NCBI GenBank assembly: GCA_001819435.1
Contig: MHMT01000003.1
Location: forward strand, 5,797-69,796
Source of the DNA: Candidatus Portnoybacteria bacterium RBG_13_40_8
Lineage (GTDB): Bacteria > Patescibacteriota > Minisyncoccia > RBG-13-40-8-A
DNA length: 64,000 nucleotides
Direction of reading: 5' to 3'
The first letter of the stretch is position 1. The number at the start of each line of letters is the position of its first letter. The notes under the pieces were generated by a model. It saw only the letters and a program-made list of their open reading frames with translations. It was not told the DNA's origin and did no database searches. The translations under genes were made by a program, and so were the position numbers. This document shows positions 13,372 to 38,516 of this stretch, piece after piece.

Positions 13372-14538
13372 CAAAGTTTTTTTAGCTGTATTCTCCCAGG
13401 TAAAAGTATCTGCTTTTTGCCGGCCCTTACTTATCAATTGTTCTCGTAAATCGTAATTTAAGAGAACTTTTTTTATACATTCAACAAGTTTTTCTAAATT
13501 ATTGGTCTCGAATAATAATCCGGCATCTCCCACAATCTCGTCGATGCTGGTATTGTTAGCCGCCACAACAGGTAATTCGTGCTCGAATGCTTCTACGATA
13601 GGCAAGCCAAAACCCTCAAAAGAGGAGGGGAAAACCAGCGCTCCTGCTTTTTGATAAATGTAATTTAATTGTTTATCCGGTATATAGCCCAAAAATAATA
13701 CTTTTTTTGACAATCCATAGAGTTTGATTAAGTCGTCAATTTCTTTTTTTACTTTTTCATTTTTTATTATCCCCGTAAGCACTAAGTTCAAATCAGGAAA
13801 TTCATATTTTAATTTATTTAGGGCTTCTATTAATATTTTGTGGTTTTTGTGTGGCCAAAATGTGGCCGGATAAAAGATAAAATTCTTGGGTAGCGAAATA
13901 GCGCCTTTTTCATTTTTTTTATTATCAGCGCCCAAATAAATAGTGGTAATCTTGTTGGGATTAATTTTATATTTTTCTATAATGGTTTTTTTAGTGTAAT
14001 CGGAAATTGCAATAATGTGATTTGAATTTAAAACAGAATATCGATATTCTGTTTTTCTGTGTTCTAGTATATTGCTGGAAAAATTCTTTGGAAAATATTC
14101 ATGCTGCAAATCATATATTGTGGTAATTATTTTAACGTTCTTTATTCCCTTGGGATAAATAATCATTGCCGGGAAAAATAATATATCTATATTTTTTTTA
14201 TTTATCAAAGATTGAATTTCCTTTGTCATTATTTTTTCTTTGGCTAAGTCATTGTTTTTTATTTTTGTAATCAATTTCAAAAAAGCCCTTACAGGATTGA
14301 ATATAAAATCGCGGCGGATATCAATAATTTTTAGTTTAACATTTTTATTTTTTCTGTATCTTTTTTTAAGATATTTATAATTGTATAAATTTATTAAGAG
14401 ACAGTATTTACTGTCTTTATCAATATTAAAAAGATTATCAAGAAGGTTCTGTATATAAACAAAACTACCCGTGCCATTCGGGCGCAATACCCACAAAAGA
14501 TTAATGGCTATATTTTTATTTTTAATATGATCTTTCAT
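13336..14538 (-). CDS. GT4-family glycosyltransferase
   Basis: EGFGLPIVEAFEHELPVVAANNTSIDEIVGDAG is a GT4 signature. Confidence 0.7.
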   Translation of the reverse strand: MKDHIKNKNIAINLLWVLRPNGTGSFVYIQNLLDNLFNIDKDSKYCLLINLYNYKYLKKRYRKNKNVKLKIIDIRRDFIFNPVRAFLKLITKIKNNDLAKEKIMTKEIQSLINKKNIDILFFPAMIIYPKGIKNVKIITTIYDLQHEYFPKNFSSNILEHRKTEYRYSVLNSNHIIAISDYTKKTIIEKYKINPNKITTIYLGADNKKNEKGAISLPKNFIFYPATFWPHKNHKILIEALNKLKYEFPDLNLVLTGIIKNEKVKKEIDDLIKLYGLSKKVLFLGYIPDKQLNYIYQKAGALVFPSSFEGFGLPIVEAFEHELPVVAANNTSIDEIVGDAGLLFETNNLEKLVECIKKVLLNYDLREQLISKGRQKADTFTWENTAKKTLLVFNKAMTNTQ

Positions 14539-15773
14539 TGATTTTTAACAAACTTATTCATAATTTCTTTGTACACTCTTTCAGAAGAATTTGAGTCAAC
14601 ATATTTATGGATTAATTTTTGGCAATTACTAATTTTTTTTGAGCATTCCTTCATAAAATCCTCTTTGTTGTTCATATAATTATCTAGGGCATTCAATAAA
14701 GCATCAAAAGTTTTTACTATCGGTCCAAGCACCAGGTTTTCAAAATCTTCATATAACGTCCGGTGTTCTGTTTTGTATTCCTTCAGATCATACCAATAGA
14801 AAATAATCGGCTTTGAACATAAAAGAAAATTATAACATACCGTGGAATAATCCGTTATAAGAATATCAACGTATTTTAAGGCTGGAAAAATATCATTTAA
14901 ATTATTTGGGGTTAGAATGTTTTTACAAGAATAAGGAATCTGCAAGGTTGATTCTTTAACAGGATGTAATTTTACAATAAAAACACTGTTATTTTTTTCT
15001 AAAAATGAATTCAGCTTTTCCCAATTAATTGGAACATCCATTGATTTCGACTCATAAATTCTGACGTCTCTATAGGTTGGCATATATAGGATGACTTTCT
15101 TTTTATGTGCTTTAAGGCTCTTGATTAATTTTAAGTCCTCGTCGATAAAAGGGTTTTCAACGTTTTTTAAGAGCGTATCATTACATGGATACCCCGTCAC
15201 AACAACATCTCCTGCCCTTTTGCCGAAGGCGCTTTTCATGCATTTTTTTGTCATTTCTGAAATGCAAATCATCATATCATATTTTTCATATTCCCAGGGA
15301 TTAAAAAATCTATTTCTTAACCGCTGTAAGATATCGTCGTGATACAATTTATAGAAATAGTTATTTTTTAAATCCGAATCCAATCCAATTTTCTTAATCC
15401 CTACGCCGTGCCATAAATTTATCTTCTTAGCCCCACGAGAAAGAAAATAACTGATATCGTAATTTGTATGTACATTAAAAATATATATTCCCCCTCGCAC
15501 AGCATAATAATAACCTTTCGGAGAATTTAAATAATATGCTTCAAATCCTTTTGCTTGCAACATTTCGACAATTTTTTTAGTTCTTGATATCCAAATTTTC
15601 CTAATATTCTTTTTATTAGAATTATGTAAATATAAAAATAACCATTTTGAATTACCAAAAAAAGTTTTATTCCTTGAACCAAAAATCCAGATTTTCCGGT
15701 CCCTTGGAATAAATCCTACAAAAAAATATATCATATGCAACAAAAGATGTTTTATTATAGTTTTTATGCGCAT
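14535..15773 (-). CDS. CDP-glycerol glycerophosphotransferase family (TagB/TagF-like)
   Basis: ILYMPTYRD and LITDYSTVCYNFLL match conserved TagF-family motifs. Start trimmed to MRIKT (TAATG overlap with the upstream stop). Confidence 0.55.
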   Translation of the reverse strand: MRIKTIIKHLLLHMIYFFVGFIPRDRKIWIFGSRNKTFFGNSKWLFLYLHNSNKKNIRKIWISRTKKIVEMLQAKGFEAYYLNSPKGYYYAVRGGIYIFNVHTNYDISYFLSRGAKKINLWHGVGIKKIGLDSDLKNNYFYKLYHDDILQRLRNRFFNPWEYEKYDMMICISEMTKKCMKSAFGKRAGDVVVTGYPCNDTLLKNVENPFIDEDLKLIKSLKAHKKKVILYMPTYRDVRIYESKSMDVPINWEKLNSFLEKNNSVFIVKLHPVKESTLQIPYSCKNILTPNNLNDIFPALKYVDILITDYSTVCYNFLLCSKPIIFYWYDLKEYKTEHRTLYEDFENLVLGPIVKTFDALLNALDNYMNNKEDFMKECSKKISNCQKLIHKYVDSNSSERVYKEIMNKFVKNQ

Positions 15774-17320
15774 TATATTTTGCTGGTTAGTTTTTTGAAC
15801 CCGGGTTTTCTCACGGCTTCGATATAACAACTTAGCTCTTTTAGGATGGTATTTTTTTTAGTAGAGTATTGATTAAGGATTTCATTCCAGTACCAATCAT
15901 TAATGGCTTTGTCCTTTAATTGGGAAAATGATAGGAGGGGACAGGCAGTAAGATCTATGCGAGAAATTTTATGAATATAGATATAAACTGCTTTAGCTAT
16001 ATTTTGAGCTTCGGCAGGTAATTTTTCAATTTCATTGGCCCTGTTTAAAATTTCAAAATATTCTTTTTTTGTTTCGGGCTCTAAAACAAAGCCTAATTTA
16101 GTATAACGATTATCGCCAGCTGTAATTGAAGGAATGGCCCCCATTGCGGGTAATTCAAAGCCAGCTGAACCAGTGCATGTAACAATTAAATCAGCGCAAT
16201 AAATTAAACTCCGGGTATCTATTTGATTGTTTTCATCAATGTAAATAACATTATTAGAACATTCGGAGAATAATTTTTTAAAGTTTACGTCTTTTGTGAT
16301 GTACCATTTAATTGAAGGGTGTTGTTTAAAGATCCAATTAATTTTATTATTTTTTTTTGCGAATTCAAGCGTTTGAATAAACCAATCATAGTAATCTTTA
16401 AAAACCATCCATTTGAAAGTAGTGTGTGGGTGGTCATTAAATGCATGGAGCATGATAAAGACATTTTTTTTGTCCGGATTAAGTTTAAAGTCTTTATTAA
16501 AAAAAGTTCGGTCGGTATAATATTTTTTATTTTTCGAGAAGGCATTTGGGCCGTCAAGACTGCCCTTGCCAGAAACTTCTTTTCTAAAAACTTCCAAGAA
16601 AACATTTTTGAGTCTTGGTCCCAGCTGGTTGATGATTTTTTGGGTGTCAGATTGAGAAGATTTATTGGGATGAACAATTTCTTTTAAGCTCTTGAAAGAT
16701 CGTAATGTTGCCTGATGATGACCAGTATGCAGATATCCTTGATAACCATAGCGTAGAGCAGAGCGCAACATAACGCCACCGATGATTCCTTGTTGATGAG
16801 AAACCAGAACACCGGCATAGTTCCCATTTTGTAGAATGTTTTTAATTTTAAGGTGCCGAAAAATACAGAGAGCGGTAATCTTAAAAATTTTAAAGTCGAT
16901 TTTTTTAATTGTTGCAACGTGGTTCTCGTGTAGGTAGGTGTCATAAACAATATCGCCATATTTTACCCCATCATAGCGAATCCCGAGAATATCTTTAGTA
17001 AAAAGAACCTTAAGAAATTTTAAAAGAGCAATAACTATAGCGCGTAGTTTTCGCAATTCTCGGACCAGTGATTTTTTTCGAGTCGTTACTATTTCAATAT
17101 CGGGAAAGTATGATTGTAAGAACTGACGCTCTAAGCATCCCTTTTTACAAAGCCAGGCAGGGGTATAACCTTTTGCCTGGTTTATAATCATGGCAAAAAT
17201 CGCACTTGTGTGAATAATCATTGCCCGCCTTGGTTCTTCAATGAGTATTTTTTTGCCACTATCTTTAATAGTAAATTGCGACCAAAATTTTCTATTTTCT
17301 TTAATGAATCTATTAATCAC
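15773..17320 (-). CDS. hypothetical protein, possibly a capsule-polysaccharide-synthesis (KpsC/KpsS-like) transferase
   Basis: Weak family resemblance only (KQHP motif region and a Gly-rich TCTGSAGFE segment). Confidence 0.3.
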   Translation of the reverse strand: MINRFIKENRKFWSQFTIKDSGKKILIEEPRRAMIIHTSAIFAMIINQAKGYTPAWLCKKGCLERQFLQSYFPDIEIVTTRKKSLVRELRKLRAIVIALLKFLKVLFTKDILGIRYDGVKYGDIVYDTYLHENHVATIKKIDFKIFKITALCIFRHLKIKNILQNGNYAGVLVSHQQGIIGGVMLRSALRYGYQGYLHTGHHQATLRSFKSLKEIVHPNKSSQSDTQKIINQLGPRLKNVFLEVFRKEVSGKGSLDGPNAFSKNKKYYTDRTFFNKDFKLNPDKKNVFIMLHAFNDHPHTTFKWMVFKDYYDWFIQTLEFAKKNNKINWIFKQHPSIKWYITKDVNFKKLFSECSNNVIYIDENNQIDTRSLIYCADLIVTCTGSAGFELPAMGAIPSITAGDNRYTKLGFVLEPETKKEYFEILNRANEIEKLPAEAQNIAKAVYIYIHKISRIDLTACPLLSFSQLKDKAINDWYWNEILNQYSTKKNTILKELSCYIEAVRKPGFKKLTSKI

Positions 17321-20881: not shown

Positions 20882-20882
20882 A

Positions 20883-21995
20883 TTATTCTAAATATTCAAG
20901 CTTAATTGGATTATATTTATTTAAATCTTTTTTGGTTTTTTTACCAACGACGTCCCCGAACTTATCAGAGGGTAAACCATTAATATACTTTTTTGGTCGC
21001 ATGGCAAAAATCATCTCTTTAGTTATAACTGTACCAGCTGGTATGTTGGCTCCGGCTACCAATGACTTATTAAAATATGGCCTGAATTTATTATTGGCGC
21101 CTTCAAGTTCTTTTTCTTTTATTCCATAAAAAGTACTCTCGTCCATATTTTTATATTCATTATTGCGGATAGCGCTTACCATTTTTTTCATTTCTTCTGG
21201 TGTGATAGAAGCCTTATGATCGGGTCCCCATAAATCCCTTGAAAAAGAAAAATGCTTTTCAATAACCTTGGCGCCAAGTTTCACTGCCGACAACGAAGCA
21301 TTGGGACCCAAAGAATGATCGGAAAATCCAACAACTATATCCGGATATTTTTCTTTCAAATATTCTATGGTAGATAAATTAAAATCTTCGGCTGGGCAAG
21401 GATACTGACTGACGCAATATAAAACCGCAAGTGGCACTCCTTTGGACTGGATGTATTTTATAATTCTATCCAATTCGTCCAAGCTGACCATTCCGCTTGA
21501 AATAATAATCGGTTTACCTGTTTCAATCATATAATCAAGCATCACATAATCCTGTACATCGCCAGAGCCGACTTTCCAAAAAGGAACCTCAAGTGCATCC
21601 AATGTTACAGCTGCCTTACGACTCATGGGCGTAGAAAAGAAAATAATTCCTTTTTTGTCGCAATATTGTTTTAATGGTTTCCAAAATTCTTCAAAGGGGG
21701 TAGCATTGGTGTTTCTTTTAACCCAGGAATACCTATCGCTCTCCTTAAAATGTGGCGAGACGATATTAATGTTCATTTGTTCATCTTCAAGATTATGAGT
21801 TTGAAATTTTACCGCATCAGCCCCTGATTCCTTAGCTAATTTTATTAACTTTTTGGCGTTTTCTAAATATTCTTCTGTTTTTTTTTCTTCTTCTGACTGA
21901 ATAAAGTTCTTGCCGATTTCGGCAATAATAAAAACTCCTTTTTGAATTTTTCCCCAAATATATTCTTCGTTAAAATTATTTTTATTTTTATGCAT
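20883..21995 (-). CDS. NeuB-family nonulosonate synthase homolog (divergent)
   Basis: NeuB-fold motifs (AEIGKNF..., ADAVKFQTH, GFSDHS) plus a C-terminal SAF-like domain. The canonical N-H-N motif is replaced. Confidence 0.6.
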   Translation of the reverse strand: MHKNKNNFNEEYIWGKIQKGVFIIAEIGKNFIQSEEEKKTEEYLENAKKLIKLAKESGADAVKFQTHNLEDEQMNINIVSPHFKESDRYSWVKRNTNATPFEEFWKPLKQYCDKKGIIFFSTPMSRKAAVTLDALEVPFWKVGSGDVQDYVMLDYMIETGKPIIISSGMVSLDELDRIIKYIQSKGVPLAVLYCVSQYPCPAEDFNLSTIEYLKEKYPDIVVGFSDHSLGPNASLSAVKLGAKVIEKHFSFSRDLWGPDHKASITPEEMKKMVSAIRNNEYKNMDESTFYGIKEKELEGANNKFRPYFNKSLVAGANIPAGTVITKEMIFAMRPKKYINGLPSDKFGDVVGKKTKKDLNKYNPIKLEYLE

Positions 21996-22051: not shown

Positions 22052-23488
22052 TTAATTATTATTTTTTTCTATTTCTAATAAAATTCCTTGAAGGATATTA
22101 TTTAGGCTTTCTTGTTTGGTGAGTTTAGAGGTTTTTTCAAGATCGGGACAGATATATCCATGGATGGTTGCGTTGTCAAAACATTTTAAATAATTGATAA
22201 TTTTTTGCTGGTTTACAACAAAACCACTTGCGATTTTTTTAAAAGCATTTTTGCATGATTCAACGTCTTTAACTTTAAATATTTCCGAGCAGTCCCTATA
22301 CCAGGGATAACCAAAAACCAAGCTTGGTTTCGACCTTAAAATTGCCTCCCATGCAGCTGTTCCGGTAACTGTAGCAACTGCCTGAGATTTATTAATTAAG
22401 GTATACGTATTAATTTCAACCGGGATTACTTGAACATTTTTTAATTCGGCTATTTTTTTGTAATAACCTTGATACCGGTAGTAGAAAAACCTTATTCCTC
22501 GACGAATCCATTGGATTGGATGCTCTTTTACATAAATAATCCAACCCGGAGGGAGCGAGGCGGATAAGGTTTCAATCATTAAAACTTGGTCAACAAATAC
22601 GTCTCCTTGAGGAGAGGTGGTGCATTCGGGTTGGACTTGAAGCGCTACATAAATAAATTTTTTATTAAAATCAGGTTCAATTTGAATGCTTTTATATTCT
22701 TTTTTAAGGTTTTGTTCAAGTCTGCTGTTTATGCTTTGCATTATTAGTTTTAAAAGAGATTCTTCTTTAAGGTATTTTTTCAGTCGTTTTAATCTGTGCA
22801 CCAATGAATTAGATTTAGAATATCGATTCCTTATTATGTCCATGGATACTATTGTCCCGTTTGGCGCAGAGTTACGGTTAGGGTCTGTTTGTAATTTGTA
22901 GTATTCTTGTAGGTCATTACTTAAATCTTTTAAGGAAAAATTTTTATCCTGATTTTTTTTAAGCTCTTTATGTAAATTATCGCTTCCTTGCCAAAAATCA
23001 GTATAAATTAATGTTCTGTCAGTGGTTTCTGCGTCTTCAAGCACAATTGTTTTGATATTTAATAAGTGTCCTAATTCATAAACAAGATAACTACTAATAT
23101 CGTGCGGAATGGTTTGATTAATAATTATATCCGGTTTGTATTTTTTGAGGACACCGTACCAGTATTGCAGCATATTATAATATAAATGTTTGCGTTCATC
23201 TGTTTGCAGCTTGCCAGTTTTAGCCCTGTTCATCATTGTTAAAATTAAGGATTCGACTTTGTGTAATCGCTCAATCAAATCCTTTCCCGGTGGTAGAAAT
23301 CCAGACATATCAATGCCCTTGGCTGGTATTCCAGATAGGGCATCCAAAAGATTATGGAAAATAGTTTCCGAGGGTTTATATTTTTCTCCCCTGTTAGCCA
23401 GCCAGTAAACAATCTTATTTGATTGTCCCTTTAATGTTGAAAGGATTATTTCTGGATCTGAGCTGTTCCATGTTAAAAATATTTTCAT
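22052..23488 (-). CDS. hypothetical protein, polysaccharide-biosynthesis context
   Basis: No confident family assignment. Possibly a TagF/capsule-synthesis-like transferase. Confidence 0.25.
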   Translation of the reverse strand: MKIFLTWNSSDPEIILSTLKGQSNKIVYWLANRGEKYKPSETIFHNLLDALSGIPAKGIDMSGFLPPGKDLIERLHKVESLILTMMNRAKTGKLQTDERKHLYYNMLQYWYGVLKKYKPDIIINQTIPHDISSYLVYELGHLLNIKTIVLEDAETTDRTLIYTDFWQGSDNLHKELKKNQDKNFSLKDLSNDLQEYYKLQTDPNRNSAPNGTIVSMDIIRNRYSKSNSLVHRLKRLKKYLKEESLLKLIMQSINSRLEQNLKKEYKSIQIEPDFNKKFIYVALQVQPECTTSPQGDVFVDQVLMIETLSASLPPGWIIYVKEHPIQWIRRGIRFFYYRYQGYYKKIAELKNVQVIPVEINTYTLINKSQAVATVTGTAAWEAILRSKPSLVFGYPWYRDCSEIFKVKDVESCKNAFKKIASGFVVNQQKIINYLKCFDNATIHGYICPDLEKTSKLTKQESLNNILQGILLEIEKNNN

Positions 23489-23500
23489 ATACGTTCTTAT

Positions 23501-25330
23501 TTATTTTCTAATATTATAAATCTTATAAAAATAAGATTTTTTATCTTTTAATAATTCACCTGGTATACCTTGTTCAATAATTTTACCTTTTTCTAATATT
23601 AACAACTTATCGCAATTAATTACAGTGGATAATCTATGGGCAATCGCTAAAACTGTAATTTTACCCTTAAGATTTTCGATTATTTTCTGGATTCGTATTT
23701 CTGATTCGTTATCAAGAGCGCTGGTTGCTTCATCTAATATTAGAAATTCTGGATTTCTGGCCAGAATTCTGGCTATAACGATTCTTTGTCGCTGGCCGGC
23801 CGACAAGAATATTCCTCTTTCTCCAATAATAGTAGAAAATTTCTTTGGTAGGGTTTGTATAAAATCATATATATTAGCCTTTTTTGCTGATTGTTCTATT
23901 TCTTCTTTATTAATAGTATCATCATAAAACCTAATATTATTAGTAATAGTATCATTTATCAAAAATATGTCTTGGGGAATATAACCAATATTTTTTCTCC
24001 ATTGTTTTATATCAATTTTTGAAATATTCTTTCCATTCATTAAAATTTCACCCTTACTAAGAGGGAATAGCCGTAAAATTAAATCAACAATAGTAGTTTT
24101 CCCGACCCCAGAGGGGCCGATTAAACCGACCATTTCTCCTTTTTTAATATTAAAACTTAGATTGTTTAAAATTATTGCACTTCTATTATAGGAGAAATTT
24201 ACATTTTTAAGTTCTAAATCATTATCAAACTTGAAATGACCTGAGCCCTTGATTTTTTCTCTATTTTTGTCAACCTCTTTTTCAAAGATTAATACATCCT
24301 CCAAATGGGGGACTAATTCATTTGCCGTGTGCAGTCCTTGTTGCAGATCTTGAATATATTGAAAGATTTTATAGATTAGATATGTTATTGGAATAAAGGC
24401 GGCAAAACTGAAATTCGGAGATTTATATGCGAATAAGAATACAATGCAAACAAAAATTAAACTAGTTGGTTGAAAAAAAAGGTGGGCGCAGTTTTTTAAT
24501 AAGAAAATTTTTACTTTAATTTTTTTTAGTTTGTTAAAATATTTTTTTCCAATTTCAATAATTTTATCGTTAACAAACATCGTTTTTACTGTTTTTATTC
24601 CTATAATATTTTCATTAACAAAATGAGCAACCTGCTTATTTGTGGTGGCTACTTTTTGAGCAGCTATTCTTGTTCTATACATCAGGGGTTTAAAAGAAAA
24701 GAACAGAATACTCCCCATGACAAGAGCAAATAGTGTGATACGGGATGAAATATTGATTGCTACTGTTGTATAAATTATTAGACCCGTTAATGTCATTACG
24801 GCCGCGCTAATGGTATTTAAAAGGCTCGTACTATTTGCTATATCCACTTTTAAAATAGTCTCTAAATAGCCCAATTTTTGTTTTATTAGATAGGACCAAT
24901 TAGCGTTTATGGTTTTGCTGAACAAATTATTTCTGGTTTGTTCTTCATAATTTGCGCTAATTTTAATTCTAATATAGTTGCAAAAAACTAAAGCGATGGC
25001 TTTGAAAACAAATAATAAAACAATAAAGACAAGTAAATATTTTAAACTGAAATCAATATTAAAATACAAAAAAGCTTTTTCAATGGTTTGAGATATTATA
25101 TCAGCCTCGCCAAGCCCTTCTTCTGTGGCAAGAGAAATTACGGGAATTGCAGCATTAATTCCAATGCCTTCTAATGTACCAGTTACAAATCCTAATATTA
25201 TTAAAAGGAAAATTTGTAACTTGTATCTACCAAAAGCTTGTTTTGATAATTTTGTTATTGTTGTTAATCTATTTTTTGACATAATGTCTCGCACCCCTGA
25301 AATTAATTTTTTCTTTAAAGTATAAATCAT
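23501..25330 (-). CDS. ABC transporter, fused permease-ATPase (MsbA/PglK-like exporter; candidate lipid-linked glycan flippase)
   Basis: Six-TM N-terminal half; Walker A GPSGVGKTT, signature LSAGQRQRIVIARIL, Walker B ILDEATSALD. The true start is probably internal (MSKNRL) to avoid overlap. Confidence 0.8.
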   Translation of the reverse strand: MIYTLKKKLISGVRDIMSKNRLTTITKLSKQAFGRYKLQIFLLIILGFVTGTLEGIGINAAIPVISLATEEGLGEADIISQTIEKAFLYFNIDFSLKYLLVFIVLLFVFKAIALVFCNYIRIKISANYEEQTRNNLFSKTINANWSYLIKQKLGYLETILKVDIANSTSLLNTISAAVMTLTGLIIYTTVAINISSRITLFALVMGSILFFSFKPLMYRTRIAAQKVATTNKQVAHFVNENIIGIKTVKTMFVNDKIIEIGKKYFNKLKKIKVKIFLLKNCAHLFFQPTSLIFVCIVFLFAYKSPNFSFAAFIPITYLIYKIFQYIQDLQQGLHTANELVPHLEDVLIFEKEVDKNREKIKGSGHFKFDNDLELKNVNFSYNRSAIILNNLSFNIKKGEMVGLIGPSGVGKTTIVDLILRLFPLSKGEILMNGKNISKIDIKQWRKNIGYIPQDIFLINDTITNNIRFYDDTINKEEIEQSAKKANIYDFIQTLPKKFSTIIGERGIFLSAGQRQRIVIARILARNPEFLILDEATSALDNESEIRIQKIIENLKGKITVLAIAHRLSTVINCDKLLILEKGKIIEQGIPGELLKDKKSYFYKIYNIRK

Positions 25331-26693
25331 AAAAGCTCTTTATTAATCTGTTGGCATTATTCATATCTTTTGTCGTGTGCATAAAATGATCAGTTATTAA
25401 TTCTTTATTTGCTTCGTATAATAATTTATAAAATTTTTCTTTCGGAATATCGGTGAAGTTGACGGTTAACAAATCCGAATTCTTGAACTTATTGAAGAAA
25501 TCTTCTGGTCCGGACAATAAACCTCTGTCTATTGCTTCGTAATATAGGTCGCTTCCGGGATAAGGAGTTACGGGTCTAATTGTTCTGATTTGATCGTATA
25601 AATTATATTTTTTGATTAGTTTTACATTATTCTTCAAGGATTCTTCGGTATCTCCTTTATTGCCCCAAATAAAATTTAATCCGAGTCCCACTCCCGCTTT
25701 GTTTGTGATCTCTGCGGCCATTATATTTTGTTCAACTCTAGTGTTTTTATTCATCAAATCCAACACCCTTTGGTCTGAAGATTCCATTCCAAAATTAATA
25801 AATTGACAGCCGGATTCTTTTAAGCTGTTAACGATTTCCTCGTCAAAAATATCTACCCTTGCATTACATGAAAATTTGATTTTAAGATTATTTTTTTTTA
25901 AAGCGTCCCGAAATTCAAAAATCCTCTTTTTTGAAAAAACGAATAATTCATCACCCATGAGAAAATAATTGACACCATATTTACTGTTTAAAAGCAGAAT
26001 TTCTTTTATGACATTTTTTACGCTTCGAAACCGTATTCCTTTTTCCATCCTGTAGCAAAAATTACATCTGTTAATACATCCTCTGCCAGTTAGAATGTCT
26101 AACGTTTTATCATCTTTGGTTCCCCTGAATAGTTTTAGGCAGGTAGTATATTTATCCATTGGGAATAGCGACCAGTCTGGAAAAGGAATGGAATCTAAAT
26201 CTCTGATAGGTTCTCTTCTTTCATTAATTATTATCTTTCCATTTTTACGATAAGCAATGCCTTTTACCTTAGAAAGATCCGAACCATTTATTTTACATTT
26301 TAACAAATCAACAATGGTTTCTTCTGCCTCTCCTATTGCAATAATATCTGCTTTAGTTTCTTTCAGCACATATCCGGGTATAGGAGATGGTCCGGGGCCG
26401 CCCAAAACTAACCAGGCATTTTTTTTGTATTTATTTATTGTGTTGCAGAGTCCAAGCACAGTTTCCTTGAATCTTGCCGCCAAAAAACCAACGCCAATCA
26501 AATCGTAGTCTTCATTTTTCAAAAAAAGATTAGCCAGTTCTTCATTTGAATAATGGAAAACATCTTGACAACATATCCCTACATTAAATCCTTCTTTTTT
26601 AAGCACGGCAGCCATATACGCATATCCCAGTGGTAAATAGTTGTCTTCTTGATATATGTCGTGAACAATTAATAATACCTTTCCTTCTCGCAT
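25269..26693 (-). CDS. B12-binding-domain radical SAM enzyme (candidate Fom3-like C-methyltransferase)
   Basis: GRGCINRCNFCY motif, FGMESS motif, and an N-terminal B12-like domain. Immediately adjacent to the phosphonate genes. Confidence 0.7.
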   Translation of the reverse strand: MREGKVLLIVHDIYQEDNYLPLGYAYMAAVLKKEGFNVGICCQDVFHYSNEELANLFLKNEDYDLIGVGFLAARFKETVLGLCNTINKYKKNAWLVLGGPGPSPIPGYVLKETKADIIAIGEAEETIVDLLKCKINGSDLSKVKGIAYRKNGKIIINERREPIRDLDSIPFPDWSLFPMDKYTTCLKLFRGTKDDKTLDILTGRGCINRCNFCYRMEKGIRFRSVKNVIKEILLLNSKYGVNYFLMGDELFVFSKKRIFEFRDALKKNNLKIKFSCNARVDIFDEEIVNSLKESGCQFINFGMESSDQRVLDLMNKNTRVEQNIMAAEITNKAGVGLGLNFIWGNKGDTEESLKNNVKLIKKYNLYDQIRTIRPVTPYPGSDLYYEAIDRGLLSGPEDFFNKFKNSDLLTVNFTDIPKEKFYKLLYEANKELITDHFMHTTKDMNNANRLIKSFYDLYFKEKINFRGARHYVKK

Positions 26694-26732
26694 AATTTAA
26701 TTAGATTACCGTTACTATATTAATATTGATGA

Positions 26733-27896
26733 TTAATAAATCTTTTCTAATAATTTTCTTAAAATTTTCTTTGTTACAAAACGAGGATTATTAGCCACTT
26801 TATTTGAAGTAAGGCCATGTTTAATTATTGTTTCAACATCAGTAATCCCGACCTTACTTAATGAAGTTTCTAATCCGATTGATTTCATAACGCCATTGAT
26901 TTTATTACAGGCTTCATTAACAGTATTGCAACCGAGATTTTTGACAACTTCCATAATTTTCTTTTTTACAAATTCCGGACCTCTTTTATCATTACAGTCC
27001 TTACCCGTCACGTCATAGTTGTATTTTAAAAACATTGATAAGGTTAAAGCGCAGGCATGTCCGTGAGGAATATTAAAAAAGGCAGTCATTGGATAAGAGA
27101 CAGAATGTACGGCCGTAGTAGCGGTCTGACTGAAGGCTTGACCGGTTTCAATAGTAGCTAGCATCATTTGTTCACGATAAAATAATTCTTTTGGTTTTTT
27201 GACTGCGTTTTCTAAATTATTAATAGCTAATGACATGCCTTGAGCTGCATGAATATCAGAAAATGGAGTTGAATGAATTGACCAATAAGCCTCTGTAGCT
27301 TGAGATAGAACATCCAGTCCTGTACAGGCCGTGAGGAAAGGGGGCATACTTAAAGTTAATCTCGGATCACATATGGCCGCCAAAGGAAACATCAATGGAG
27401 AACTAAGGGAGTATTTTATTTTATTTTCTCCCCAAATTGTTGCCCAAGGAGTAACTTCGCTGCCAGTTCCTGCTGTTGTGGGAATTGCTATAAAAGAAAT
27501 TCCTTTTTTATTTAATTTTCTTTTTTTTGTAAGAAAATCAATCAAGGTCCCCTTATTATTAGCAAGTATTGCTGCAGATTTTGCTGTATCTAAAACACTA
27601 CCTCCCCCTATAGCAATAATTAAATCAGTTCCGAAGTCTCTAATTAAATGTCTTACATTTTCTATTTGGGTTACATTTGGTTTTGGGGGAATTTTACTAA
27701 AAACTTTGATTTTTATTTTTGGAAAAGAGTCTTTTACCTTTTTAAATGTTTTGTCTTTCAAAACATGTTTACCTACAACTAAATAAACCCTTTCCCCTTT
27801 TGTTTCTAAAATATCGGGTAGGTATTTTAAAATTCCTGAACCAAAATATATTTTTGTGGGAAGATAATATTTATTAAATTTTTTTAATTTGAGCAC
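26733..27896 (-). CDS. iron-containing alcohol dehydrogenase (candidate phosphonoacetaldehyde reductase, FomC/PhpC-like)
   Basis: GGGSVLDTAK signature of group III Fe-ADHs. Gene context. Confidence 0.7.
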   Translation of the reverse strand: MLKLKKFNKYYLPTKIYFGSGILKYLPDILETKGERVYLVVGKHVLKDKTFKKVKDSFPKIKIKVFSKIPPKPNVTQIENVRHLIRDFGTDLIIAIGGGSVLDTAKSAAILANNKGTLIDFLTKKRKLNKKGISFIAIPTTAGTGSEVTPWATIWGENKIKYSLSSPLMFPLAAICDPRLTLSMPPFLTACTGLDVLSQATEAYWSIHSTPFSDIHAAQGMSLAINNLENAVKKPKELFYREQMMLATIETGQAFSQTATTAVHSVSYPMTAFFNIPHGHACALTLSMFLKYNYDVTGKDCNDKRGPEFVKKKIMEVVKNLGCNTVNEACNKINGVMKSIGLETSLSKVGITDVETIIKHGLTSNKVANNPRFVTKKILRKLLEKIY

Positions 27897-27906
27897 GAAC
27901 GGTTCT

Positions 27907-29034
27907 CTATTTATTTTGAAGAAATTTCATAAATGCGATTTTGTTTTCTTGGGGTGTTTTGGTCGGTCTTCCTAAATTCTTTCTTGAGCCTCTTTTTATT
28001 TTTACAATCAGCATACTAGGACATTTTTGAAATTTTATTGTTTTAACAAAATTAACTAATTCTTTTTGCGTCGTTGCAATTTTAGCGCTTTTATATCCGC
28101 AAGCTAATGCAATTCTACTGAAATCAGCAGAATTAGAAACAGTTTTTTGGCCGCCGGTTGAATCGTAAGTATTATTGTCGAAAATTATATGAAAGAGATT
28201 CTTGGGCAAGAAATGACCTATGGTAGCCAATGTGCCCATTTTCATTAAGACAGAGCCGTCGCCATCAAAAATAAAAATTTTTTTTCTGGGCTTGGTCAAG
28301 GCAATGCCCAGGGCAATACCAGCAGAACAGCCCATTGAGCCAACTACATAAAAATCAGTACGATGGTTTTGTTTTTTTATTTCTCTGCATTCAAATAATT
28401 CTCTTGAGGTTTTGCCGGTTGTAGAGATTATTGCTTCATCACCTTTTAGATTAGCAAGTATGATCTTAATGGCTTCTTCTCTTGTTAATGAATAAATGTT
28501 TTTTTCTTCTGCCTTAGATTGGCAGGATTCTATTGTTTCTTTTTTGACGATGATAGCGTAGGGTGAGCCGTTTTTTTTCAAGTATAGTTTGGCTTTTTCA
28601 ATTTCTTTTGCTGCCTTTACCTGATCTGGGGGAAGAAAGCTAAAGGGGATGCTTAAGGTTTTTAGCAATTTTAAAGTGATTCTGCCCATTTTAATGTGTT
28701 GCGGTTCGTCTTTTTTCCCTGGTTCGCCACGCCAGGAAATTAAAAGCAAAGCCGGAATACCATAAATAGCTTTATCCAATAATGAGGTTAGGGGATTGAT
28801 GGAATTTCCCAAGCCGGAATTTTGCATATAAACCATCGGAATTTTTTTGGTAGCTAAATAATAACCAGAAGCAATGGCGCACGCTTCACCTTCGCTGGTA
28901 GCAGGAACATGATTAAGTTTGCCAGTATCATTTATATAAATCAAAAAATCCTTAAATATACTGCAAGGAACTCCCGTAACGAAAGTTAAATCTTTCTTTA
29001 TTAATAAACTGATTAATTCATTGTTTTTAAGCAT
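27907..29034 (-). CDS. ppd: phosphonopyruvate decarboxylase (thiamine-diphosphate dependent)
   Basis: TPP-enzyme N-terminal and C-terminal halves with a GDGS Mg/TPP-binding motif. About 375 aa, typical for Ppd. Directly downstream of pepM. Confidence 0.75.
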   Translation of the reverse strand: MLKNNELISLLIKKDLTFVTGVPCSIFKDFLIYINDTGKLNHVPATSEGEACAIASGYYLATKKIPMVYMQNSGLGNSINPLTSLLDKAIYGIPALLLISWRGEPGKKDEPQHIKMGRITLKLLKTLSIPFSFLPPDQVKAAKEIEKAKLYLKKNGSPYAIIVKKETIESCQSKAEEKNIYSLTREEAIKIILANLKGDEAIISTTGKTSRELFECREIKKQNHRTDFYVVGSMGCSAGIALGIALTKPRKKIFIFDGDGSVLMKMGTLATIGHFLPKNLFHIIFDNNTYDSTGGQKTVSNSADFSRIALACGYKSAKIATTQKELVNFVKTIKFQKCPSMLIVKIKRGSRKNLGRPTKTPQENKIAFMKFLQNK

Positions 29035-29035
29035 A

Positions 29036-30382
29036 TTATTCTATGGTTGGAATTAGTTCTAGAATTTCTTTAATAGACAGACAAAACTTATCTGCTTCAT
29101 GGGCTCTATTGTGTTTTAATATTAATTTTGCTGTTTTTACCATAGCAGGATAAGCGCTCCTTAACAGCTGATTTGCATATATTACAATTCTGACTCCTGC
29201 TTTGATTAATTCTTTTTCCGTTATTTGGTTGTATGTTGAAGGCACAACCACAAGAGGAACTTTATATTTAAATTTCTTATATTCTTTGCAAAATTCGAGT
29301 ATTTCCTTCGGGTCTTTTTCTTTACTATGTATCATTATGCCGTCAGCCCCTGCATTTATGTAGGCTTTTGCTCGTTTAAGGGCATCTTTTAGCCCTGCTT
29401 TTAAAATCAAGCTCTCAATTCTAGCTATAATCATAAAATCATCTGTCACTTGAGCTCTTTTACCCGCAGAAATTTTATTACAAAAACCCTTTATAGTATC
29501 TTGGGCTTGTTTAACGCCTGTTCCAAAAAGAGAATTTCTTTTAGCGCCGATTTTATCTTCTATAATAACGGCGGAAACACCAAGCCTTTCAAGAGATTTA
29601 ACCGTAAACATAAAATGCTCAGGCAGTCCTCCGCTGTCTGCGTCAACAATCATTGGCTTGGTTGTTACCTCTAATATTTGTTCAATTGTTTGGATTCTGG
29701 ATGTAATGTCTACTGCGGCTATATCTGGCTTGCCTTTTGATATTGAATCAGTTAAACTGCTTTCCCACATACCATCGAATTCACGAACTTTTCCGTTTTT
29801 ATTGATCTTTGTTTTTTCAACTATGAGTCCGGTTAGTCCATTATGAACTTCCATAATTCTCACTAATGGCTTAAGCTCCAATAACCTCCTAAGCATTTTT
29901 AATCTGTAAGCAGGAGTAACCCCTACTGCAACTACAGAACTAATAAGTTGTGTTGATGATATTCCTGGAACAAATTTGCGTTCAACTAATTTACCATGCC
30001 ATTCTTTAAGCGCTTGAATAACTCTTTTTCTTGTTTCTCGTTGAATACCTGTTTTCCAATCATCTCCGTGAACAACATAATCTGGCTTGATTTTTCTCAA
30101 ATTCGGAACATAATCTAGGGTTGTCTGGGCTACTATATTCTTTACTCCTGCAATATTCTCCACTATTTTTTTTCTTTGCTCATATGTCAAAAACGGCACC
30201 CTTTTATAACTAGCTATGGCTTTATCTGTTAGTAAGCCAACCACTACATCTCCTAATTCTTTTGCTTTTATTATGGTATTTATATGCTCCGTATGAATAA
30301 GGTCAGCGCACATTCCTATATATACTATCTTTGGTTTTTTTTGTTTATGTTTCATATTACTTATTTTTTTACTTATTTTCAA
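29036..30382 (-). CDS. pepM: bifunctional cytidylyltransferase / phosphoenolpyruvate phosphomutase (Fom1-like)
   Basis: N-terminal domain: [11 protein letters not shown] is a cytidylyltransferase H-x-x-H-type motif. C-terminal domain: [16 protein letters not shown] is the PEP-mutase EDK(x5)NS signature. Confidence 0.8.
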
Positions 30383-30942
30383 AAGATTTCTTTATGAATC
30401 ATGTCCTTTAGTCTTCTTTTTGGAACATGTAAAATGCCTTTTTTATCAAGCCAGTATTTTATATCTTTTTTAAATTTATCCTCAACAGATTTCTGTTTGG
30501 GATAGCCGAGAGCTATTGCCAATTCAATCATGTAATCTTTTGGAATATTTAAATATTTGATCAACTTGTCTCTGTTTAGCGAACCAATTATACAGCTTGC
30601 TATTCCTTTCTCTAGTGCAGTTAATAATATGTTTTCTATCGCTAAACCCACATCATATTTAGCATTAGTACTTATTTTAGTGTTAGAGATTATTAAAATA
30701 TAAGCAGTGGGCCTTTCTCCTGTTTTTGGAGCTCCATTTTTCAAATAACCTGCCCAATTGGTGCATTCAAAAACTCGGTCAAGATTCTTGGTTATCAAAA
30801 TATATTCTAAGGGTTGAAGATTGGCAGAGCTTGGTGCAAGTCTGGCCGTATTTATGCATGAAAGAATGTCAGATTTTTTAATTTCTTTTTGAGAAAATTT
30901 TCTTATCGTCCTTCTTTTTAGAATTAATTTATATGTATTCAT
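30379..30942 (-). CDS. nitroreductase-family flavoprotein
   Basis: N-terminal RRTIRKF...APSSANLQP matches the nitroreductase fold signature. Confidence 0.6.
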
Positions 30943-30943
30943 T

Positions 30944-31663
30944 TTAATCTGTGGTTAATTTTTCTTTTATACCGCTTCCCAGGGATTTTTTTAATTTTTT
31001 TAATGTTTTTACAAGATTATCTACATTATCTATAATTATTGCATGTTCGTCATCGGGAAATTTTTCTTGTGAATTATCTTTTACGTAAAAAAAGATATCC
31101 GATGGCTCAAATGCTACCGACAGATAGAGTATATTGTGTTCTGAACAATGCAATCCAAAAGCTATTTTTTTGTTTGTAAGTCTTCTGAGTCTGTCAATGG
31201 CTTTTAGATTGGTATCTTCTATTTTTCGTGATAACTGAGTATGAATAAATTTTATATTTTTTAATTTTTTACTCATTTTAATTATTTCTTTTTCACTTGA
31301 GATGCCGGTAGATACAAAAATAGGCTTATTTGTTTTCTGTAGTTTGCTTAGAAGGGCATCATCTAAAATAGAAGTACTCAAAGATTTCCAGAAATCAGCC
31401 CCGGCCGAATTAAGAAAAGAAATCATTTTTTTATCCGTAATCGCAAAGCCTATTAACTTGTTGTTTTTGTGAACAAAATCTATCGCATTTTTATAAAAAT
31501 TTTTGCTAAGTGGCCCTCCCCATTTTTTTATTTTGTCATAATACGTAGGTTCTACAACTTGAAAAGTAATCGCATCAATATCTGTACTAATCAATTTCTT
31601 AAGCATTTTGAATGCCCTCGTTTCACTACCTTTATAATTTTTACCTATTTCCGAAATAAACAT
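30944..31663 (-). CDS. short NeuB-like (TIM-barrel only) protein lacking the catalytic motif and SAF domain
   Basis: ISEIGKNYKGS...AITFQ aligns to the NeuB N-terminus, but the N-H-N motif is absent and the protein is only 239 aa. Confidence 0.4.
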   Translation of the reverse strand: MFISEIGKNYKGSETRAFKMLKKLISTDIDAITFQVVEPTYYDKIKKWGGPLSKNFYKNAIDFVHKNNKLIGFAITDKKMISFLNSAGADFWKSLSTSILDDALLSKLQKTNKPIFVSTGISSEKEIIKMSKKLKNIKFIHTQLSRKIEDTNLKAIDRLRRLTNKKIAFGLHCSEHNILYLSVAFEPSDIFFYVKDNSQEKFPDDEHAIIIDNVDNLVKTLKKLKKSLGSGIKEKLTTD

Positions 31664-31690: not shown

Positions 31691-32812
31691 TTACTGAACT
31701 TCTTTTTTTAATCTCCAAACCCCATTTCTTTTTTCCAGAATTTCTTTATTGGCAAACTTGTCTGCTATTGCCCAAAACTTTTCTTCTGGATACTCAATAA
31801 AGTCAAGAAAATCTTTTAACATCTTTCTGTCTAGTTTATAATCTTCTTCATTCACCAATTTCACTGCTTCCTCTCTGGTTAGTCTGCCTTCTCTTATCAA
31901 GACGCTGCTGGTTGCCGTGGTGTAGCAAAAACCGAACTTGAGAAACTTAAACCAGGCATCAGTAAGGTATCCTACTGTGTCAATCTGATTATATTGTTCT
32001 ATGTAGCCTTCTCTTTTCCATTCACCAGTATCATCGAGCGTCTTAAACCCCTTACTTCTGGCAAACTCCATGTGTTTATATTGGCTCCACGGAACAAAAT
32101 AACTTAAATAAATTGGGTCTAATTTGGCTCTTTTTATTTCTTCTGCCGAAGGATAGATACAAGGATTAAAGTCTTTCATAGAGAGAGATGGATCTTCTTT
32201 TAGCCAAACACTCCAATCTATTGGCTTAATAACATCATTGTTGATCTGTTCAAGGGCGCTATATGTCTCTTTGTCTCCTAACGTTCCGCCGTATTCATAG
32301 CTAGTATTCTCGCCATAAACAACTAAAGGTATGCCGAGTTTAATAGCCATTTGAATAGGATAAGCATAAATAGCAAGATCAAAATACCATCCTGGTTTAC
32401 CAATTTTCTCTAACCCCATTCGAAACATTTTCTTACATACCTTTGGGTTTAACGACATTATATGGGCATCTACTCCAAACTTTTGTAAAAGATTACTCCA
32501 GTTTTGCTTGCCGGTCTTGGTCCAACTAAAATTATCAATATTTATCAAAAGCGGATTCATTCCTAACTTCTCTTTTAAGATATAGGTTTGATAATAGCTA
32601 TCTTTTCCAGCGCTAACAGTATTAATACAATCATAATAATTACCATTTGAGCCACGGTATTTATCTGCCAATTTTTCCAATTCTTGCCATCGTTTATTCC
32701 AGTCAGTTTTGGCCTTGGTTTCATGATGTCGGCACGGATAACAAACTCCTTCATCATCGAATTTTATGCCAGGCCTAGTGTCTGGCATGACGCATTTTTT
32801 ACAATATCTCAT
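31691..32812 (-). CDS. N-acetyl-sugar amidotransferase (PP-loop ATPase, WbuX/PseA-like)
   Basis: N-terminal CxxC pairs, SAGKDS PP-loop, and similarity to the family that adds acetamidino/amide groups to nonulosonic or uronic sugars. Confidence 0.6.
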   Translation of the reverse strand: MRYCKKCVMPDTRPGIKFDDEGVCYPCRHHETKAKTDWNKRWQELEKLADKYRGSNGNYYDCINTVSAGKDSYYQTYILKEKLGMNPLLINIDNFSWTKTGKQNWSNLLQKFGVDAHIMSLNPKVCKKMFRMGLEKIGKPGWYFDLAIYAYPIQMAIKLGIPLVVYGENTSYEYGGTLGDKETYSALEQINNDVIKPIDWSVWLKEDPSLSMKDFNPCIYPSAEEIKRAKLDPIYLSYFVPWSQYKHMEFARSKGFKTLDDTGEWKREGYIEQYNQIDTVGYLTDAWFKFLKFGFCYTTATSSVLIREGRLTREEAVKLVNEEDYKLDRKMLKDFLDFIEYPEEKFWAIADKFANKEILEKRNGVWRLKKEVQ

Positions 32813-32821
32813 ATTTTTATT

Positions 32822-34399
32822 TTAATTGTTAATTTTTTTATTATATATATTTTCTAAAGCCCTTATATATTTCTTTGTTTTTCCGTTATCGTTCCAAACG
32901 CCATCGTGAGCAAATACACATTCTTCATGTATTTTATATAATTCTTCTGTTAATTTTTTTCCGATCTCGTCATCCTTTTCCGATCGTTCTATATATTTAT
33001 AAAAAAGACGGGGCATTTTTATATACAATACAAATCGTTCCCGAAGAGCTATAAGCTCTTTTTGGGGAATATCGGGGAAAGTCAAGGCCGGTCTGTCATT
33101 TTGGAATACTGCATCGGAGTTTTCGTCAAAGAAGCCATTTTTTACGGCAATCTCTCTTAGCTCAGTTTTTTCTAAAGGAAAGAAGAATCCCGCATTCGGA
33201 TATCGAACCTCTGCCTTTCTATTCAATTCGATAGTTTCCATAACGGTTTTTCTATTTTCAAATGGAACACCCAGCATATTGAAAGCAGAAGTGCGAATGC
33301 CGGCGTCATTAAATAATTTAGTTGCCTCTATGATTTCTTCTTCGGTTTCAATCCTTTTGAACATTTCCTTTCTTAATTTATGATTTCCTGTTTCAATGCC
33401 TAGGCTTACACTGACACAGTTCATTTTTTTAAGAAGTTCTACTTTTTCTCGGGTTACATTTCGGGCATTAGCCATAATAACAAACGGAACTCCGACTTCT
33501 TTTTTATATTTATCAGCCAATTCATTGAAATAATCCAGTGATTTGAGACAAAAATCTTCATCGTGAAATTTAAAGAATTCCAAATCCCATTTATCAACCA
33601 GATATTTTAATTCCTTAATAATTCTATCTATGTTGTAATATCTTAAGAAAGGACCGGCTCCTGGCCCATAAAGTTTACGGTAAGCGGCATTAATGCAATA
33701 TGTGCATTGATTTGGACAGCCCCAGTATATCATGTGGTCGCCGCCTCTATATATTTTGCCGTCAAATGGTTTAAGGAAATGACGTTTGTCAAAAATTGAC
33801 CAATCAAAAAATGGCAGAGAATCCAGGTTCTGAAAATATGGTCGCAAGGGATTTTTTTTAATCCCCCCATTATCATCCTTATATGCGATATTATTAATTG
33901 TCTTAGGATTACAATTTTTAGCAATACATTCAACAAACTCTGGCATAAATTCTATTCCCTCGCCAACGCAAGCAAAGTCTATATGATTACAATCAAGAAT
34001 CTTTTCGGGTACCATTGTTGCTGCTTTGCCTCCCCATATAACTATGGTGTGGTTATTCCATTCCTTGACAATCCTTGAAATCTCGAAACCAATGTATATC
34101 TCATCTGACAAAGCAGAAATTCCGATTATATCGGGATTAAATTCGTTTAATTTTTTCAACAATTCTTCTTTTAAATTAACTTTTTTCTTGGCCACATCGT
34201 ATTTACTGAAATCAACATCTTTGAAAATTTTTATCTTACTACGGACTTGAGTATTGTTTTGAAAGTTAAAATCTATAAAAGTGGTATCGAATAAATCAAC
34301 CTCGTGTCCTTTGTTTTTTAAGATACCGAATAATAAAGATAGGCTCATTGGTTTAAAGCCAAATTGATCTTTATTGGGCCATACAAATAATATTTTCAT
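32822..34399 (-). CDS. B12-binding-domain radical SAM enzyme
   Basis: WGCPNQCTYC motif and GIETGN motif. Paralog of the enzyme at 7388. Confidence 0.75.
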   Translation of the reverse strand: MKILFVWPNKDQFGFKPMSLSLLFGILKNKGHEVDLFDTTFIDFNFQNNTQVRSKIKIFKDVDFSKYDVAKKKVNLKEELLKKLNEFNPDIIGISALSDEIYIGFEISRIVKEWNNHTIVIWGGKAATMVPEKILDCNHIDFACVGEGIEFMPEFVECIAKNCNPKTINNIAYKDDNGGIKKNPLRPYFQNLDSLPFFDWSIFDKRHFLKPFDGKIYRGGDHMIYWGCPNQCTYCINAAYRKLYGPGAGPFLRYYNIDRIIKELKYLVDKWDLEFFKFHDEDFCLKSLDYFNELADKYKKEVGVPFVIMANARNVTREKVELLKKMNCVSVSLGIETGNHKLRKEMFKRIETEEEIIEATKLFNDAGIRTSAFNMLGVPFENRKTVMETIELNRKAEVRYPNAGFFFPLEKTELREIAVKNGFFDENSDAVFQNDRPALTFPDIPQKELIALRERFVLYIKMPRLFYKYIERSEKDDEIGKKLTEELYKIHEECVFAHDGVWNDNGKTKKYIRALENIYNKKINN

Positions 34400-38267: not shown

Positions 38268-38516
38268 TTACCACTTTTTGATTTTGTTTTTTATATTCTT
38301 TTTCAGTTTTTGATAAACTGCCACTGCCTTCCTTTCAACTTTAGGAGAGACCAGTCTCAGGATTTCTTTCCCTAAAATCCTGTATTGCCCCCCGACTTTA
38401 TTTGCCTTGATAATGCCATTCTTAAGAAGGCGTTTTATGGTGCTGTCGCTCACTTTCAAAATTTCTTTAGTTTCGTTGGTGGTATATATTGAGTTTGGAT
38501 TTACTTCTTTTTCCAT
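38268..38516 (-). CDS. small helix-turn-helix DNA-binding protein (excisionase/MerR-type HTH_17)
   Basis: ILKVSDSTIKRLLKNGIIKANKVGGQYRI resembles the Xis/MerR N-terminal HTH. 82 aa. Confidence 0.5.
   Translation of the reverse strand: MEKEVNPNSIYTTNETKEILKVSDSTIKRLLKNGIIKANKVGGQYRILGKEILRLVSPKVERKAVAVYQKLKKNIKNKIKKW

Follow-up and report, generated by a model that had tools for sequence, protein, structure and literature searches.

The early fosfomycin pathway of Streptomyces runs through Fom1, Fom2 and FomC, then Fom3, FomD and Fom4, and Fom1 is the exemplar of the PF01467 fusions that make up 23.6% of phosphoenolpyruvate (PEP) mutases, or Ppm enzymes (Rice et al. 2019, PMC6697681). The cytidylyltransferase (CyTase) domain of Fom1 has published activity on 2-hydroxyethylphosphonate (HEP) (Cho 2017, as cited in PMC6697681), and the neighborhoods of HEP-forming iron alcohol dehydrogenases (Fe-ADHs) have been catalogued as about 10 cluster families in diverse bacteria and archaea (Li & Horsman 2022, PMC8942020), one of which gives rise to an exopolysaccharide conjugated with HEP in Stackebrandtia nassauensis (as cited in PMC8942020). 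Here, we compare with these systems a group of phosphonate genes found next to a B12-binding radical S-adenosylmethionine (rSAM) gene in a 64,000-nucleotide stretch of DNA (the window) from Candidatus Portnoybacteria bacterium RBG_13_40_8, a member of the candidate phyla radiation (CPR; Patescibacteria) whose database proteins match those of the window at 100% identity. A first-pass annotation made from the bare sequence had described these genes as exactly the Fom1/Fom2/FomC/Fom3 quartet, making a cytidine monophosphate (CMP)-activated and possibly C-methylated hydroxyalkylphosphonate destined for a glycan. On the basis of homology and gene order, we consider it probable that a three-gene cassette would make CMP-HEP for transfer to a glycan by a TagF-like enzyme, and that the rSAM gene forms a separate unit with an ABC (ATP-binding cassette) exporter and a Capsule_synth gene and does not act on CMP-HEP.

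The Fom1-type cassette

The genes of the cassette and those closest to it, by position in the window, are as follows.

29036..30355, minus strand: bifunctional fusion of a Fom1-type cytidylyltransferase (N-terminal, PF01467) and a PEP mutase (PepM; C-terminal, PF13714)
27907..29034, minus strand: thiamine pyrophosphate-dependent phosphonopyruvate decarboxylase of the Fom2/Ppd type (TIGR03297), adjoining the fusion
26733..27896, minus strand: group-III Fe-ADH (PF00465, PF25137)
25269..26693, minus strand: B12-binding rSAM enzyme (PF02310, 42 bits; PF04055, 74 bits)
23501..25330, minus strand: HepA/MsbA/PglK-like ABC exporter, overlapping the rSAM gene by 62 nucleotides (nt)
22052..23488, minus strand: Capsule_synth protein (PF05159), third member of the rSAM-ABC-capsule-synthesis block
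30379..30942, minus strand: nitroreductase-family flavoprotein (PF00881, 82 bits; PF14512)
30944..31663, minus strand: short, divergent NeuB-like protein of 239 amino acids (aa), with a partial PF03102 match and no SAF domain

The five genes annotated between 25269 and 30942 are all present on the minus strand with real domains, and their setting is as described, with the ABC exporter downstream and nonulosonic-acid genes on either side. The fusion scored 402.5 bits on the curated equivalog TIGR02320 (cut-off, 319.55), and its N-terminal domain was 65% identical over 136 aa to the Fom1 CyTase domain of PDB entry 5x3d (E=7e-56). The EDKxxxxxNS signature of PEP mutases, 10 residues long, is intact, as had been read from the sequence; the further catalytic motifs DADSG, IIARIE and IMIHSK are present, and with them the catalytic Asp, Arg and His positions of the domain. 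The reading frame extends back to a TTG at 30382 (29036-30382), and the start is most likely the ATG at 30355, which gives 439 aa, as in the NCBI annotation. The N-terminal domain is a TagD homolog (PF01467, with matches to 1coz and TIGR01518) and was the sole PF01467 cytidylyltransferase among the window open reading frames (ORFs) scanned (1-50382). Homology to Fom1 and the near-invariant pairing with Ppd and Fe-ADH genes suggest that it would cytidylylate HEP with CTP, and some database sources name the homologs of the fusion [quoted passage not shown] Metagenome proteins 70 to 87% identical to the fusion are abundant and include those of Parcubacteria, Wildermuthbacteria, Falkowbacteria, Minisyncoccus archaeiphilus and Woesearchaeota.

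For comparison, we used a genuine fosfomycin cluster from Streptomyces sp. NPDC057623 (locus L006), with the gene order B12-rSAM (the Fom3 ortholog), HTH-cupin (HppE), DUF402 (FomD), amino-acid kinase (FomA), an ORF in the FomB position that had no Pfam match, Fom1, Fom2 and FomC. The Ppd matched TIGR03297 over its full length (471.7 bits; cut-off, 312.5) and was 40% identical to the Fom2 of this cluster. The Fe-ADH is a predicted phosphonoacetaldehyde reductase that would make HEP, and its orthologs lie directly after PepM-Ppd in loci L170 (80% identical) and L171 (62% identical). Assignment of this gene to the nonulosonate genes was rejected: Fe-ADHs found in some of the loci that hold relatives of the rSAM gene were 26 to 32% identical to it, whereas the orthologs with 80% and 62% identity stand behind PepM-Ppd. 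In L171 (7120-11143), from another Patescibacterium, the window-type Fe-ADH (62%) follows a 584-aa fusion of PepM with NTP_transf_3, so that this dehydrogenase lineage is common to two kinds of nucleotidyltransferase fusion.

The first three members of the supposed quartet are thus borne out as Fom1-, Fom2- and FomC-type genes that look intact. Like the Streptomyces pathway, the window has the CyTase-PepM architecture (with 60% identity between the entire fusion and the L006 Fom1) followed by Ppd and Fe-ADH in the same order, and the chemistry is predicted to be alike up to CMP-HEP. Unlike that pathway, it holds no Fom3 ortholog, HppE, FomD or FomA/FomB, and the genes are part of a glycan operon rather than an antibiotic cluster. 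The absence of an epoxidase (HppE) and of FomD had already been remarked upon and is confirmed: tblastn with the L006 proteins gave no match in the window to HppE, FomD, FomA or FomB at E<1e-3, and no cupin or DUF402 domain was found among the annotated window ORFs. The cassette belongs instead to the class of PF01467-Ppm fusions, or the PhpC-type HEP branch, of the “phosphonyl tailoring” clusters (PMC6697681; PMC8942020), from which it differs in having a CPR host and in its surroundings, a locus that holds two sets of nonulosonic-acid genes.

The distribution of the cassette was surveyed with the Fom1-type domain as query against one genome per species. At least 569 species genomes carry this domain, and neighbors were counted, by tblastn with the window proteins, in the best 80 of these loci. 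The cassette of fusion, Ppd and Fe-ADH is collinear: the PepM fusion was found in all 80 loci, Ppd directly after it in 75 and the Fe-ADH after Ppd in 73, with the order kept, and the missing genes mostly fall at contig ends. The hosts include Actinomycetota, Pseudomonadota, Bacteroidota, Planctomycetota, Patescibacteria, Woesearchaeota and other archaea, and a Stackebrandtia genome (L007) is among the best matches. The expectation that such genes would be unusual in a CPR genome does not stand, as the PF01467-PepM/Ppd/Fe-ADH trio is common across Patescibacteria and DPANN. Homology and synteny together make HEP, and then CMP-HEP, the most likely product of the cassette. In one relative (L169, 10589-11702), the Ppd is divided into two ORFs of 158 and 176 aa, representing either a pseudogene or an assembly frameshift. 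When the flanks of the window cassette were searched for direct repeats or a target-site duplication, AT-rich chance matches alone were obtained, and a short resemblance that an alignment had shown at both junctions was not borne out.

The B12-binding rSAM gene and its genomic company

The fourth member of the supposed quartet does not resemble Fom3 in particular. The rSAM protein encoded at 25269-26693 has an intact CxxxCxxC motif (C206-x3-C210-x2-C213), and its B12-binding and radical SAM core is common to all class B enzymes. It was 25% identical to the L006 Fom3 ortholog (100 to 108 bits), which is the background level, because unrelated B12-rSAMs scored alike (90 bits to a second rSAM of the same operon and 102 bits to that of L060). 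When Fom3 was searched against the window, six B12-rSAM genes were retrieved, of which the best was 2174-3595 (120 bits) and 25269-26693 only the fourth (80.5 bits). On NF038361, a model of phosphonate B12-rSAM methyltransferases, the Fom3 ortholog scored 293 bits and the rSAM 103, less than three of its window paralogs, and in a neighbor-joining tree the family of this rSAM was monophyletic in 100 of 100 bootstraps and joined with Fom3 in 0 of 100. No curated NCBIfam family cut-off was reached by the protein, its best scores being those for BchE (154 bits) and HpnJ (135 bits).

Structural comparison gave no closer assignment. The best PDB matches of both the Fom3 ortholog and the rSAM were MgmA (9ccb) and AprD4. 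The AlphaFold model of the rSAM (predicted local distance difference test score, 87.8) matched the folds of TsrM, AprD4, MgmA, CysS, OxsB and TokK at template modeling (TM) scores of 0.62 to 0.73, with the best TM to AprD4 and with methylases (TsrM, MgmA, CysS, TokK) and non-methylases (AprD4, OxsB) about equally near. AprD4, whose substrate is an aminoglycoside sugar, is a radical SAM diol dehydratase and a cobalamin-independent look-alike of the class B enzymes. The window protein thus shares its Rossmann B12 domain, CxxxCxxC core and fold with the class B rSAMs (Fom3, PhpK, GenK, MgmA/QCMT, TokK, CysS and OxsB, with AprD4 as look-alike), but has no specific affinity to Fom3 or PhpK and forms a family of its own in nonulosonic-acid loci.

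That family is large and tightly conserved, its best 120 database clusters being 66 to 87% identical to the query. A metagenome scan recovered 80 loci with relatives at 53 to 81% identity, and gene content was counted in those that were 9 kb or longer (43 loci), whose relatives were 55 to 81% identical. PepM or Ppd occurred in 0 of these 43 long loci, whereas NeuB was encoded in 33, a CMP-nonulosonate cytidylyltransferase in 29, NeuC in 22 and WbuX in 16. De novo clustering of 47 such loci added sugar dehydratases and epimerases, DegT aminotransferases, HisH/HisF-like amidotransferase parts, acetyltransferases and SPASM radical SAM proteins. Such genes make up legionaminic- and pseudaminic-type pathways, and the rSAM family (members 55 to 87% identical) is widespread across many phyla, uncharacterized and tied to nonulosonic-acid loci; no relevant paper emerged when the literature was searched for a link between B12-radical SAM enzymes and nonulosonate biosynthesis. 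From this genomic company, the rSAM is proposed to act on a sugar of the nonulosonate pathway, presumably by radical C-methylation or by an AprD4-like dehydration.

Comparison of individual loci separates the two halves of the region. L085 (rSAM 81% identical) keeps the window order of short NeuB, nitroreductase (90%), rSAM, ABC (79%) and Capsule_synth (77%), with just 4 nt between nitroreductase and rSAM, and has no phosphonate genes. The cassette is likewise absent from L166 (rSAM 82% identical), which encodes HAD, short NeuB, rSAM, ABC and Capsule_synth (64%), and from L165 (rSAM 87% identical), in which an epimerase, a cytidylyltransferase, NeuB, NeuC, a copy of the operon's second rSAM (88% identical) and two SPASM genes precede rSAM and ABC. 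Conversely, L170, which shares its sequencing run with L165 and resembles it in levels of identity, has GT4, short NeuB (79%), nitroreductase (89%), PepM (81%), Ppd (85%) and ADH (80%), then convergent genes, and no rSAM. Among the best 80 cassette loci, a B12-rSAM lay near the cassette in only 4, and 2 of these are the Fom3 genes of Streptomyces (L005 and L006, the latter checked). Since the two parts are not linked in their closest relatives, the quartet is an adjacency of two separable units, the phosphonate cassette and the rSAM block, standing side by side in one minus-strand glycan operon.

In L085 and L166, as in the window, the rSAM ORF runs exactly 62 nt past the predicted start of the ABC exporter gene. 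Such constancy points to translational coupling, or to an internal start, that has been conserved, and it marks rSAM-ABC-Capsule_synth as a conserved block.

The first-pass inventory had overlooked the second B12-rSAM of the operon (32822-34399) and four more elsewhere in the window.

2174-3595 (plus strand), 7388-8908 (minus strand), 9269-10651 (plus strand), 10661-12106 (plus strand), 25269-26693 (minus strand) and 32822-34399 (minus strand): the six B12-rSAM paralogs of the window

These paralogs are about 20 to 30% identical to one another and are interleaved with GT4 glycosyltransferases and methyltransferases, and the same interleaving of rSAM and glycosyltransferase genes was seen beside the closest relatives of the cassette (L167 and L168). 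Six such paralogs imply extensive radical tailoring of glycans and a heavy reliance on scavenged cobalamin in this CPR organism.

Predicted fate of the phosphonate

Candidate transferases were sought by clustering the neighbors of the cassette over the best 80 genome loci. TagF-family enzymes (PF04464) were the commonest (29/80), often directly after the ADH (loci among L014-L084), followed by LicD (8/80), YidC-sulfatase fusions (8/80) and CDP-alcohol phosphatidyltransferases (4/80). When the window was examined for five types (TagF-type, TagF-like, LicD, CDP-alcohol phosphatidyltransferase and YidC-sulfatase), a single gene matched.

14535..15830, minus strand: TagF-family (CDP-glycerol glycerophosphotransferase-like) enzyme (PF04464, 223 bits; cut-off, 22.1)

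No homologue of a CDP-alcohol phosphatidyltransferase, LicD or a sulfatase-type transferase was found in the 64-kb window. By association, the TagF-like enzyme is most likely the candidate CMP-HEP:glycan hydroxyethylphosphonyl transferase. In wall teichoic acid synthesis, TagD (glycerol-3-phosphate cytidylyltransferase) is paired with TagB/TagF, and the window similarly has a TagD-homologous domain, a PF04464 enzyme and a predicted loss of CMP on transfer; it would differ in a donor with a C-P bond (CMP-HEP) instead of the glycerol phosphate that forms phosphodiesters, the specificity of the transferase being predicted. A TagD/TagF-like logic with a C-P donor is proposed because a TagF-like gene lies in the operon, the fusion holds the sole PF01467 domain among the ORFs scanned and CMP-HEP would resemble CDP-glycerol, with P-CH2 replacing P-O-CH2. 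TagF-family partners of the cassette are not mentioned in Rice et al. 2019 (PMC6697681) or Li & Horsman 2022 (PMC8942020).

In the pathway we propose from homology, the PEP mutase domain would convert PEP to phosphonopyruvate, and Ppd would form phosphonoacetaldehyde from it in a decarboxylation that pulls the equilibrium. The Fe-ADH would then reduce the aldehyde to HEP, from which the Fom1-type N-terminal domain would make CMP-HEP with CTP. The hydroxyethylphosphonyl group would be passed from CMP-HEP to a sugar hydroxyl of a nonulosonate-containing glycan, most likely by the TagF-family enzyme, as CMP leaves. The rSAM block would carry out its radical chemistry on the nonulosonate-pathway sugar, with CMP-HEP not a substrate. 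At least 9 of the best 80 genomes have nonulosonate genes beside the cassette (e.g., Alteromonadales L015, L019, L020, L025, L028, L041 and L044), and a putative HEP-decorated, nonulosonate-containing glycan is a recurrent theme. The idea of a CMP-activated hydroxyalkylphosphonate made for a glycan is therefore retained as the best reading, while its C-methylated form is not predicted, because the rSAM has neither a relationship to Fom3 nor a phosphonate linkage.

Several observations weigh against this reading or speak for other ones. The Fe-ADH reached only 246 bits on its best NCBIfam model (TIGR03405, Phn_Fe-ADH; cut-off, 423.7) and was only 26% identical to the FomC of L006 and 36% to the ADH of L167, the cassette with the closest PepM. 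The rSAM gene adjoins the cassette on the same strand across a 39-nt gap without a terminator-like site, which makes co-expression of the two likely, and in Catenovulum sediminis (L044, 8144-9937) a 597-aa B12-rSAM, 35% identical and sister to the window family (99/100 bootstrap), stands immediately before the same cassette, with LicD and a Capsule_synth gene following and NeuB and cytidylyltransferase genes in the vicinity; the wider rSAM clade may thus be repeatedly associated with the cassette. Together with the functional plasticity of B12-rSAMs and a fold class that includes the Csp3 methylases MgmA, TokK and CysS, the adjacency and the Catenovulum gene would favor a unit of four genes in which the rSAM C-methylates CMP-HEP to CMP-2-hydroxypropylphosphonate before transfer to the glycan. 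Given the background-level similarity to Fom3, the rank of the gene as only fourth of six paralogs, its score on the phosphonate methyltransferase model, low next to the high one of Fom3, the absence of joint bootstrap support and the unlinked nearest relatives of each part, with no PepM or Ppd in the long rSAM loci, we regard this as very improbable. As to the acceptor, the TagF-like gene is about 11 kb from the cassette, and its enzyme could draw on CDP-glycerol from a pathway encoded elsewhere in the genome, and the closest CPR relatives (L049, L171, L173 and L174, the last from Minisyncoccus archaeiphilus) have a CDP-alcohol phosphatidyltransferase directly beside the cassette. CMP-HEP might accordingly be passed to a lipid or another non-glycan acceptor by a transferase encoded outside the window, with the TagF-like enzyme using an ordinary CDP-polyol; this we hold to be unlikely, as the window lacks homologues of the phosphatidyltransferase, LicD and sulfatase types, its cassette lies within a glycan operon, nonulosonate genes recur beside the cassette in other genomes and TagF-family genes are its commonest partner.

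A further alternative extends the cassette in the other direction. NeuB-family enzymes condense PEP with aldehydes, and the same five genes (short NeuB-like, nitroreductase, PepM fusion, Ppd and ADH) keep one order in the window and in L170, whose flanking contexts differ, so that they might together make a phosphonate other than plain HEP, for example through a NeuB-type condensation of PEP with phosphonoacetaldehyde and subsequent flavin-dependent tailoring. The window and L170 are close relatives, however, and the shared order may be mere inheritance; in L085, moreover, the short NeuB-nitroreductase pair (82 to 90% identical) stands directly before the rSAM with no cassette present, none of the best 80 genome cassette loci has the pair, and the short NeuB lacks one conserved metal-binding His motif (IEKH to FFYV relative to the Pse synthase 8h2c). 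A five-gene unit therefore appears quite improbable. The partner of the nitroreductase is the short NeuB-like gene, which it always follows in the window, L085 (pair at 8711-9996) and L170 (pair at 849-2152); the pair was seen with the cassette in two flanking contexts and once without it (L085). The nitroreductase was also considered as a BluB-like enzyme of the cobalamin lower ligand and rejected, as it gave a weak N-terminal match alone (47 bits; cut-off, 150).

With transfer of HEP to a glycan by the TagF-like enzyme as the preferred reading, the once-predicted novelty, a C-methylated CMP-hydroxypropylphosphonate on a glycan, falls away, leaving a well-populated and catalogued CMP-HEP cassette in a CPR surface-glycan operon. 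The cassette is further evidence that phosphonate biosynthesis serves mostly to decorate cell surfaces, those of ultra-small episymbionts included, with TagF-family enzymes as the commonest candidate CMP-HEP transferases. It is conceivable, if a long shot, that the TagF-like enzyme polymerizes CMP-HEP, the free hydroxyl of each unit accepting the next, so that a teichoic-acid-like chain of poly(hydroxyethylphosphonate), C-P bonds included, would form on the surface of a CPR cell; were this so, the TagF-family genes by the cassette in 29 of the best 80 genomes would mark widespread, undescribed, phosphatase-resistant anionic polymers. An uncharacterized B12-rSAM family tied to nonulosonic acids implies, for its part, an unknown radical modification of sialic-acid-like sugars, and the rSAM family, the TagF association and the six-rSAM region could outweigh the original claim in worth.

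The surrounding operon

Both units are part of a long operon that also encodes a priming polyprenyl glycosyl-phosphate transferase and GT4 glycosyltransferases, with the following further members.

about 13336-40042, minus strand: long glycan operon, all genes co-oriented
19012-21995 and 34414-37272, same operon: two complete NeuC/NeuB/cytidylyltransferase sets
31691-32812, same operon: WbuX amidotransferase
18086-19021, same operon: D-2-hydroxyacid dehydrogenase
38268-38516, head of the operon: small excisionase/MamR-like helix-turn-helix (HTH) gene

The two NeuC/NeuB/cytidylyltransferase sets, with WbuX and the dehydrogenase, suggest two different nonulosonic acids or a duplicated pathway. 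Terminator-like sites were more numerous (30) than in shuffled sequence (mean, 13.7; standard deviation, 4.0), and the terminator scan found none in the intergenic gaps between 25269 and 30942. Promoter-like matches were not above the count in shuffled sequence; the best sigma-70-like match of the region (38555-38526) lies just upstream of the excisionase/MamR-like HTH gene. Copies of this gene, 68 to 87% identical, precede the related loci L085, L088, L091, L150, L151, L154 and L166, sometimes directly before the rSAM.

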